This document shows positions 17,176 to 18,406 of a DNA stretch of 64,000 bases, one piece after another. Each line of letters opens with the position of its first letter. Positions within the stretch are counted from its first letter, which is position 1. The DNA lies in assembly GCA_964016885.1 (NCBI GenBank), contig OZ024740.1, positions 345,526,001 through 345,590,000 on the forward strand. Reading direction: 5' to 3'. The position numbers were made by a program, and so were the translations under genes. This stretch comes from Eledone cirrhosa (taxonomy: Eukaryota). The notes beneath the pieces were generated by a model. The model made no database searches and was not told the DNA's origin. It saw only the letters and a program-made list of their open reading frames with translations.

Positions 17176-17454
17176 AATAAATTGTGTTCCGATGGAGAAA
17201 CTGAAATTTCATTTCTCACTCTTAGTACGGCTGATACTTAAATATAAGTATGTATACTTACATACATATATGTATACAGACGTACAATAGTATGTATATA
17301 CATACATACATGCACACATATATATATGTGTACGTATGGGTTTACCGAACATTTATTATAATGCTCGTTTTTTTTGTAAAGAAACAGCCCGAATTATTAG
17401 CCGTACAGTGTTCGGCAACCATCGTTGCCATTTTGTTCAGCACTGACAAAGGAA

Positions 17455-17495
17455 CGATGAACTAGTTTCTAGTTTATTAGCTATCATCAGCACCG
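17455..17495 (-). ncRNA. Minimal type I hammerhead ribozyme, canonical core
   Basis: cggtg-CTGATGA-tag(ctaataaa)cta-GAAAC-TA-GTT-catcg; palindromic stem III ACTAGT. Confidence 0.85.
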
Positions 17496-17877
17496 TATAC
17501 ATTCCTGTCCGATGATTGAACGTTTGAAAGTATATACTTTCCTTATACATATTAACGGCTGAGTAGCCTAATTTGCATATCGAGTGAGTTAGTCGGCCGG
17601 GCGTACCGAAAACGATAAATGGAGAAAATGAAATTTTATTTCTCACTCTTAGTACGGCTGATTCTTAAATATAAATATGTATACGTACATACGCATATGT
17701 ATACAGACGTACAGTAGTATATATATACATACATGCACACATATATATATATGTACGTATGGGTTTACCGAACATTTATTATAATGCTCGGTTTGTTTGT
17801 AAAAAAACATCCCGAATTAGTAGTCGTACCGCGTTCGGCAACCATTGTTGCCAGATTGTTCAACACTGACAAAGGAA

Positions 17878-17918
17878 CGATGAACTAGTTTCTAGCTTAT
17901 TAGCTGTCATGAGCACCG
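17878..17918 (-). ncRNA. Hammerhead copy with core mutation (CTCATGA)
   Basis: cggtg-CTCATGA-cagctaataagcta-GAAACTAGTT-catcg. Confidence 0.7.
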
Positions 17919-18087
17919 TATTCCTTCCTGTCAGATGATTGAAATGAAATTTTATTTGTTCCATTTATCGTTTTCGGTACGCCCGGCCGACTAACTCACT
18001 CGATATGCAAATAATGTTACTCAGCCGTTAATATGCATAAGGAAAGTATATACTTTCAAACGTTCAATCATCTGACAGGAAGGTATA

Positions 18088-18124
18088 CGGTGCTGATGAT
18101 AGTTAATAAGAAACTAGTTCATCG
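18088..18124 (+). ncRNA. Hammerhead copy with 4-nt deletion in stem II
   Basis: cggtg-CTGATGA-tagttaataa-GAAACTAGTT-catcg. Confidence 0.7.
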
Positions 18125-18338
18125 TTACTTTGTCAGACTTGAACAAAATGGCAACGATGGTTGCCGAACACTGTACGGCTAATAATTCGGGCTGTTTCTT
18201 TACAAACAAACCGAGCATTATAATAAATTTTCGGTAAAACCATACGTACATATATATATATGTGTGCATGTATGTATATATACATACTTATATTTAAGTA
18301 TCAGCCGTACTAAGAGTGAGAAATGAAATTTCATTTTT

Positions 18339-18406
<68 letters not shown>

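Follow-up and report, generated by a model that had tools for sequence, protein, structure and literature searches.

Background

The closest described relatives of the locus analysed here are the non-LTR retrozymes of Metazoa, known from coral, mussel and axolotl (HHR_Amex1/Rtz331; PMC7229834; bioRxiv 10.64898/2026.07.22.740005). These retrozymes are few-hundred-bp, non-coding units of low GC content that carry one canonical type I hammerhead each, range from monomers to long multimers, give a strongly self-paired predicted circle and share their genome with Penelope-like elements (PLEs; PMC7229834). The family to which our locus belongs is like them in all of these respects. It differs in that its insertions are two-armed, (AT)n-targeted and end at two fixed, staggered 3' positions, in its GUU cleavage triplet and its U6-like promoter block, and in that no homologous pseudo-LTR (pLTR) of a PLE was found. 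Mobilisation of animal retrozymes by PLEs via circular RNA is proposed, not shown, in the literature that we cite, and retrozyme transcription is left open there. The words 'inverted', 'microsatellite' and 'target site' are absent from the main text of PMC7229834 as accessible, and a two-armed (AT)n insertion is not described in the accessible part of bioRxiv 10.64898/2026.07.22.740005. A search of openly accessible articles yielded no paper on cephalopod retrozymes, two-armed retrozyme insertions or U6-type promoters of retrozymes. The kind of family is known; its insertion anatomy and promoter block are not described in the literature consulted.

Two further groups of elements are relevant. 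The marks of PLE insertion listed in PMC8557442 are: 5' truncation, partial tandem arrangement, an inverted 5' copy, a tail at one end and a (TA)n target. The present family shows all of these and shares them, together with a hammerhead near the 3' end, with EN+ PLEs and with non-autonomous PLEs such as MRC1 (PMC8557442, PMC4209133). Unlike these elements it has no RT or GIY-YIG ORF, its hammerhead is canonical instead of minimal, its tail measures 54 nt against 30-40 nt (PMC8557442), and no sequence link to an autonomous partner was found. Hammerhead repeats with an internal promoter have been described for newt satellite 2 (snRNA-type, Pol II; Coats 1994, via PMC2220036) and for the schistosome hammerhead satellite (Pol III; Ferbeyre 1998, via PMC2220036). 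The present family resembles both in carrying a candidate internal promoter and differs in that this block matches the upstream motif of host U6, U6atac and RNase MRP genes plus a TATA word, and not the U1/U2 motif.

The locus lies in the window, a stretch of 64,000 nucleotides from the 3.0-Gb, (AT)n-rich genome of Eledone cirrhosa. On balance we consider it probable that the locus is a decayed non-LTR retrozyme insertion, likely pasted in by the RT and endonuclease of a PLE from a probably circular RNA of unit length. As a copy the locus is unremarkable and decayed; the family also includes intact young arrays. Its members provide footprints that can be counted: ends that are fixed and paired, passage through the cut site, arms of several near-identical units and a promoter block of host type.

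Results and discussion

Anatomy of the locus

A scan of the window for type I hammerheads recovered two minus-strand cores, at 17913 (CTCATGA) and 17490 (CTGATGA), with 423 bp between them, and a third core on the plus strand, at 18093, within an inverted arm; each of the three has a 6-bp helix I, GAAA, CTAG and TT. The initial annotation had likewise reported two same-strand hammerheads at this distance and a third, inverted one, in a unit that it took to be non-coding, and these claims stand: the longest ATG-started frame within 17192-18342 spans 71 aa, which leaves no protein coding, and the palindrome ACTAGT that had been assigned to stem III is present. The proposed unit size of 423 bp holds for the spacing, which is also the offset of a direct repeat (17294-17520 and 17717-17943, 91% alike). 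It does not hold for the units themselves: the full unit measures 425-427 bp and the second one is truncated to 325 bp (Table 1). In the following, unit positions are numbered c1-c425 on a majority-rule reference in hammerhead sense, with the octamer at c41, the TATA word at c83, the core at c129 and the predicted cut after c159.

Unit 1 ends at c425 against an unrelated repeat, without (AT)n. Unit 2 starts at c99 and has neither octamer nor TATA word, and unit 3 begins at c402 of a preceding unit, has a 44-nt deletion in its TA-rich part and runs from its c425 end into (AT)n. Only the hammerhead copy near 17455 is intact, as had been claimed: its core is kept, with one mismatch in helix II and a predicted cut after GUU between 17460 and 17459, while the copy at 17913 has a G5-to-C change in the core and the copy at 18093 lacks 4 nt of stem II. 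The subfamily variants at c106, c107, c189 and c253 are common to all three units, as are 2 inserted nt; this points to a single event of insertion and a long decay since then. We read the locus as an aged and degraded copy of a non-coding hammerhead retroelement that is dispersed in the genome, a retrozyme of known kind. The window gave no Rfam match at gathering score.

Table 1. Features of the locus, in window coordinates
Feature	Position	Strand	Description
Unit 1	17192..17618	-	full monomer of 427 bp, 3' in the left arm, 95.5% to family majority
Unit 2	17619..17943	-	325 bp, 5'-truncated, upstream member of the left arm, 93.5% to majority
Unit 3	17941..18342	+	right arm, head-to-head with unit 2 (3-nt overlap), 95.0% to majority
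Hammerhead 1	17454..17496	-	helix I 6 bp, CUGAUGA 17490-17484, GAAA, palindromic loop CUAG
Hammerhead 2	17877..17919	-	core mutated to CUCAUGA (G5-to-C); GUU cut site 17883/17882 intact
Hammerhead 3	18087..18125	+	core letters intact; 4 nt of helix II deleted
Cut-site-to-cut-site monomer, 423 nt	17460..17882	-	circle proposed in the initial annotation
12-mer TATGCAAATTAG	17568..17579	-	contains the octamer core; also 5' arm of an RNA hairpin
Octamer	17571-17578		reads ATGCAAAT on the hammerhead strand
TATA-like word GTATATAC	17530..17537	-	42 nt after octamer start; within a palindrome
Promoter-block copy of unit 3	18004..18053	+	octamer 18005-18012, flank mutated; TATA word 18046-18053
GC patch	17594..17603	-	family-specific
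'Tail', from one fixed family 3' end (c375) to the other (c429)	17192..17241	-	conserved hairpin and first T-run
(AT)n microsatellite	18341..18401	.	insertion target of the right arm

The initial annotation had seen in the locus a likely source of a 423-nt circle, and this claim was not supported: the upstream core is dead, no promoter lies upstream of it and one arm would fold back. That the locus works as an active retrozyme, releasing a 423-nt RNA that becomes circular, is indeed very unlikely, although neither the cut sites nor the arms of helix I are damaged. In a dimeric fold, the live core of unit 1 could in principle also cut the upstream site, as can be derived from the dimer model in PMC4209133, but the upstream core itself reads CUCAUGA and its own unit is the one that lacks octamer and TATA word. 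A 423-nt monomer would require a transcript that covers both sites. The sole same-strand promoter block is situated downstream of hammerhead 2, and read-through from the right would carry unit 3 in antisense and fold back over the units (the arms are 92-93% complementary). The 423-mer still folds well as a circle (computed at -110.8 kcal/mol, against -83.8 ± 5.2 for 30 shuffles), yet the hammerhead fold of unit 1 lies 6 kcal/mol above the minimum and the units have decayed by 4.5-6.5%. The window copy probably makes no circle.

Two neighbouring repeats were also seen. A structured repeat with the word CTGAGG (17069-17189) stands tail to tail against the left arm and recurs as an inverted pair at 31.9 kb (31842-32109). 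A degenerate remnant at 15500-16400 resembles by its motifs what we take to be the 3' part of a LINE with a restriction-like endonuclease.

Hammerhead type and covariation

According to PMC4209133, the canonical metazoan motif has a helix I of 6 bp, a helix II of 4 bp and a helix III of 1-2 bp with a palindromic loop, and minimal hammerheads, with a long helix II and a short helix I, belong to autonomous PLEs. In the family motif the 6-bp helix I continues through an internal loop into a long outer stem, helix II consists of a C.A mismatch and four pairs closed by AAUA, and helix III is a single pair closing CUAG. As predicted from the sequence, the layout is that of a canonical type I hammerhead by this definition, and the label 'minimal' given in the initial annotation is to be dropped.

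The cleavage triplet is GUU in the window family and GUA or GUC in its sisters; GUU is among the cleavable triplets in PMC3138052. Together with the one-pair helix III and the C.A mismatch at the base of helix II, it suggests that the predicted cleavage is slow. Both structural features have counterparts in axolotl (PMC7229834): HHR_Amex1 has a similar helix III (one pair, palindromic tetraloop) and HHR_Amex2 a mismatch at the base of helix II. Among Xenopus dimers, 8 of 9 are reported without cleavage (bioRxiv 10.64898/2026.07.22.740005).

Families A, B and C contributed 10 sequences to an alignment in which 94.5% of the cells of helices I and II are paired, against 28-47% in slid controls, and two-sided changes occur in 7 of the 11 pairs; because these sequences are related, the covariation is taken as support rather than as a probability. 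Loops 1 and 2 of the family motif presumably resemble those of the schistosome hammerhead.

Copy number and sister families

The exact hammerhead pattern has 862 matches in the genome and its reversed control has none. Together with the covariation of helices I and II these counts place the hammerheads beyond chance. A wider pattern that includes the sister families (the clade) has 38,047 matches, again with none for the control. The anchored set comprises 90 of the 100 matches listed, out of the 862, and lies entirely on contig 1.

Next to the window family, with its unit of 425-427 bp, the clade comprises a GUA subfamily (91-94% alike to the window family), family B (430-560 bp, ~78% alike, found in arrays of 19 or more units) and family C (461-469 bp, ~75% alike). 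The upstream core, which failed in the window (CTCATGA), is in order at three copies (L007, L036, L294), and L007 (G000:C4:269.25 Mb) and L294 (C1:9.97 Mb) are intact dimers. Two hammerhead positions are spanned by 9 of the 90 chromosome-1 copies, and in one of those 9 a promoter block precedes the first. The reading of the initial annotation, a unit of the non-LTR retrozyme type, was borne out: the units are tandem, carry canonical hammerheads, have no coding capacity and form a dispersed family.

Insertion anatomy

The 3' ends of the anchored copies fall at c371-383 (45 of 90) and c419-429 (31 of 90), that is, at two fixed family ends, c375 and c429, which lie 54 nt apart, and 49 of these 76 fixed-end copies run directly into (AT)3+. 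Arms are joined head to head at 54 of 130 loci and tail to tail at one. Among 56 arm pairs, 30 combine one long with one short end, 2 have two long ends and none has two short ones, with 24 unclassified; the combination of one long and one short end is found in 30 of the 32 classifiable pairs (p = 1.2e-7). The window insertion is one of the 2 exceptions, both of its arms ending near c425 and the left one adjoining the unrelated repeat.

The long tandem arrays, and the inverted arms that resemble foldback elements, are what one would see if the family were a DNA-level repeat (satellite, MITE or foldback) with an incidental likeness to a hammerhead. Such an origin is extremely improbable, as it leaves aside the combination of variable 5' truncation with fixed 3' ends, the joining of arms at variable 5' ends, and a core that is invariant and stems that covary across families 75% alike.

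Relation to Penelope-like elements

All insertion marks are PLE-like, and PLE ORF fragments occur within 1.5 kb of 20 of the 134 family loci. Of the 57 retrozyme families of Xenopus, 24 match annotated elements, almost all of which are PLEs (bioRxiv 10.64898/2026.07.22.740005). These points would suit a reading in which an autonomous PLE, itself 5'-truncated, has left the units behind as its ordinary pseudo-LTRs. The initial annotation had named copies attached to a PLE ORF as the sign of ordinary pLTRs. When the flanks of all 134 loci were examined out to 1.5 kb, not one of the 20 fragments proved to be the end of an ORF placed immediately 5' of a unit and oriented like it, and no examined copy serves as the terminal repeat of a PLE ORF. 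Furthermore, 44 of the 90 anchored copies continue upstream past the unit into another unit, the flanks of the first 60 loci have no long sequence in common, and the intact PLE family of this genome has a different, short hammerhead. For the copies examined, the pseudo-LTR reading is largely refuted, and we hold it to be very improbable overall.

The intact PLE-like family has open frames of 753-759 aa at all 10 loci fetched (L278-L287); it is young and numerous and carries its short hammerhead just before the frame. A 758-aa frame gave no Pfam match at E 0.01. Comparison of the unit with this family (40 loci) yielded no sequence in common outside TA-rich DNA, apart from family B units in one flank, and comparison with the PLE pieces of the window yielded no 3' similarity. 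Hammerhead pairs 2-2.5 kb apart were considered as ORFs of an autonomous partner and rejected, being arrays of sister family B.

At two of the 134 loci (L069 near 1239 and L181 near 1221) the 3' end of a unit runs, without intervening (AT)n, into the mid-part of a PLE ORF oriented like it, possibly as a template-switch chimera. The window itself holds several PLE remnants and terminal repeats in (AT)n (18779-19283, 36081-38724, 52887-54841, 62881-63738, 55239-60841 and 34933-35545), to which we would assign, presumably, the clade names Hydra/Neptune/Poseidon. Pfam matches to RT and GIY-YIG were obtained for the element at 55-61 kb, which also includes an inverted copy of 2 kb. An inverted pair at 18497-18801 contains a long-helix-II hammerhead of the minimal PLE type (core 18707, plus strand).

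The RNA template: circle or linear multimer

The cut site is passed by 32 of the 33 arms that reach c166 unforced by selection, and one stops there; the template was thus continuous at this point, being either an uncleaved multimer or a ligated circle. Two young sister insertions, both with one long and one short end in (AT)n, hold 9-32 near-identical units: the first consists of 7+2 units (99.6% alike, and 91% like the window family), the second of 31+1 units (99.5% alike). Every unit of these arrays has T5-T6 runs and an intact hammerhead, and 8 of the 9 units of the 7+2 insertion carry the same altered octamer. Circular monomers fold 5-13 SD below shuffles (30 shuffles each), a difference to which the TA-rich part contributes. 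The read-through of the cut site and the near-identical multi-unit young arms favour a circular template, which would also explain that the promoter block survived copying. Unequal crossing-over may have lengthened the arrays once they were inserted, and existing arrays may have been read through.

The same non-autonomous, PLE-mobilised family could instead have used linear, uncleaved read-through transcripts of tandem copies as its template, with a hammerhead that is slow or trims 5' ends, so that no circle would be needed. We regard this as rather unlikely. The read-through of the cut site fits it equally well, and so do the GUU triplet and the weak helix III; most arms are shorter than two units, but the arms with 7 and 31 near-identical units, every one of which has T5-T6 runs and an intact hammerhead, are hard to derive from it. 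Where an arm enters a second unit, its 5' end tends loosely towards c91-126, close to the predicted start at c113-118 (a post hoc observation that is not significant over all segments); pairing is nevertheless kept in the sequence upstream of that start. Finally, a promoter combined with two hammerhead positions occurs in 1 of the 90 anchored copies, so that linear templates would quickly lose the promoter.

Under the preferred reading, a PLE-mobilised and probably circular RNA, the course of events would be as follows. Arrays would be transcribed, possibly from the U6-like octamer-plus-TATA block of each unit; paired hammerheads would excise 425-nt monomers, whose ends would be held by the long helix I and ligated. 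A PLE enzyme would make a staggered cut in (AT)n and prime cDNA at c375 and at c429, one at each DNA end. Reverse copying would proceed across the ligated cut site over a variable distance, and the two 5' ends would then be joined head to head.

Scars of RNA editing were sought in the window family and rejected: rare A>G changes (202 of 18,719) exceed T>C changes (149 of 17,525; p = 0.015), but the changes do not favour particular neighbours, and the copies that look hyper-edited form a subfamily of their own.

A candidate promoter

The initial annotation had pointed to an octamer near 17571 and to a GC-rich patch as possible promoter elements. The octamer is real: it forms part of a 12-mer that is also found in host U6, U6atac and RNase MRP genes, and a TATA word follows. 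A promoter role is thereby possible, and the spacing from octamer to TATA word, 42 nt, is shorter than the 46-48 of the host genes. The GC patch is present at 17594-17603, but it is not kept in families C, D and E, and its relevance is not supported.

In the host, three distinct U6 promoters, U6atac (with a single octamer mismatch) and RNase MRP carry TATGCAAAT(T/G)AG or a one-letter variant at -76 to -78 and TATA at -30; the 12-mer is missing from several other U6 and U6atac matches and does not occur upstream of U1, U2 and RNase P in the regions examined. The genome has 37,404 matches of the 12-mer, against 623 for the control. A hammerhead core lies downstream in 23 of the first 30 matches, against 15 of 1022 background tiles, where the 30 loci are non-independent, several coming from one array. 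The loci with 12-mer and hammerhead fall into families A/B and C and the unrelated families D and E. The offset from octamer to TATA word is 42 in families A and B, 43 in D and 51 in E, against the 46-48 mentioned above; insect snRNA promoters keep this spacing tightly (PMC1761439).

The octamer is also an arm of a hairpin in 5 of the 5 sequences folded, and its C is unpaired in families B, C and D, which hints at a constraint at the DNA level. Among window-family copies it has 3.0% mismatches, against 2.8-6.2% elsewhere, so that extra conservation is weak. Two further results speak against a promoter: the octamer is altered in the young 9-unit insertion, and 5' ends do not accumulate at the predicted start, c113-118. 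Nor do they accumulate at the cut site. The word TAATTTTCATA was considered as a PSE and rejected, being the partner arm of the octamer hairpin, and inspection of the unit by eye revealed no distal motif of the kind found in host snRNA genes (TTACCTCCCTT-like). The first T4+ run lies ~300 nt downstream, and 3' ends of the long type extend past it; the T-runs would stop Pol III before the next hammerhead. Whichever polymerase would be involved, we rate promoter activity of the octamer-plus-TATA block, a candidate from its motifs, as slightly better supported than its absence.

More tentatively, the clade of ~38,000 units as a whole might be a self-promoting RNA-circle parasite, each unit carrying a captured U6-type promoter and being multiplied by twin rolling-circle reverse transcription by a PLE from a 54-nt staggered cut. 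The captured promoter would be copied along because it lies inside the circle. If this were true, the genomic arms would be a direct record of the transcription and mobilisation of retrozymes and of the formation of tandem and inverted ends by PLEs.

Several observations concern the 12-mer in other places. In the host U6, U6atac and MRP genes (L099-L101, L199, L200) the octamer-like 12-mer is positioned close in, at -77, and the U1, U2 and RNase P genes (L119-L131, L206-L216, L288) have a word ATCAGT in its place; U1 and U2 have TATA-like words near -30 too. The window contains a 340-bp partial tandem of family D at 12975-13432 (relative L224), with the 12-mer at 13236 on the minus strand, a TATA-like word upstream of the core and a GAAA box that reads GAAG. 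A 315-bp partial tandem at 13552-14012 has variants of the 12-mer at 13666 and 13981, with CTGATGA ~105 nt after the first of these and no intact GAAA box. At L237 (G000:C1:5,413,729-5,416,740) a family E unit has a tandemly repeated octamer block and a hammerhead with a U3-A8 core variant.
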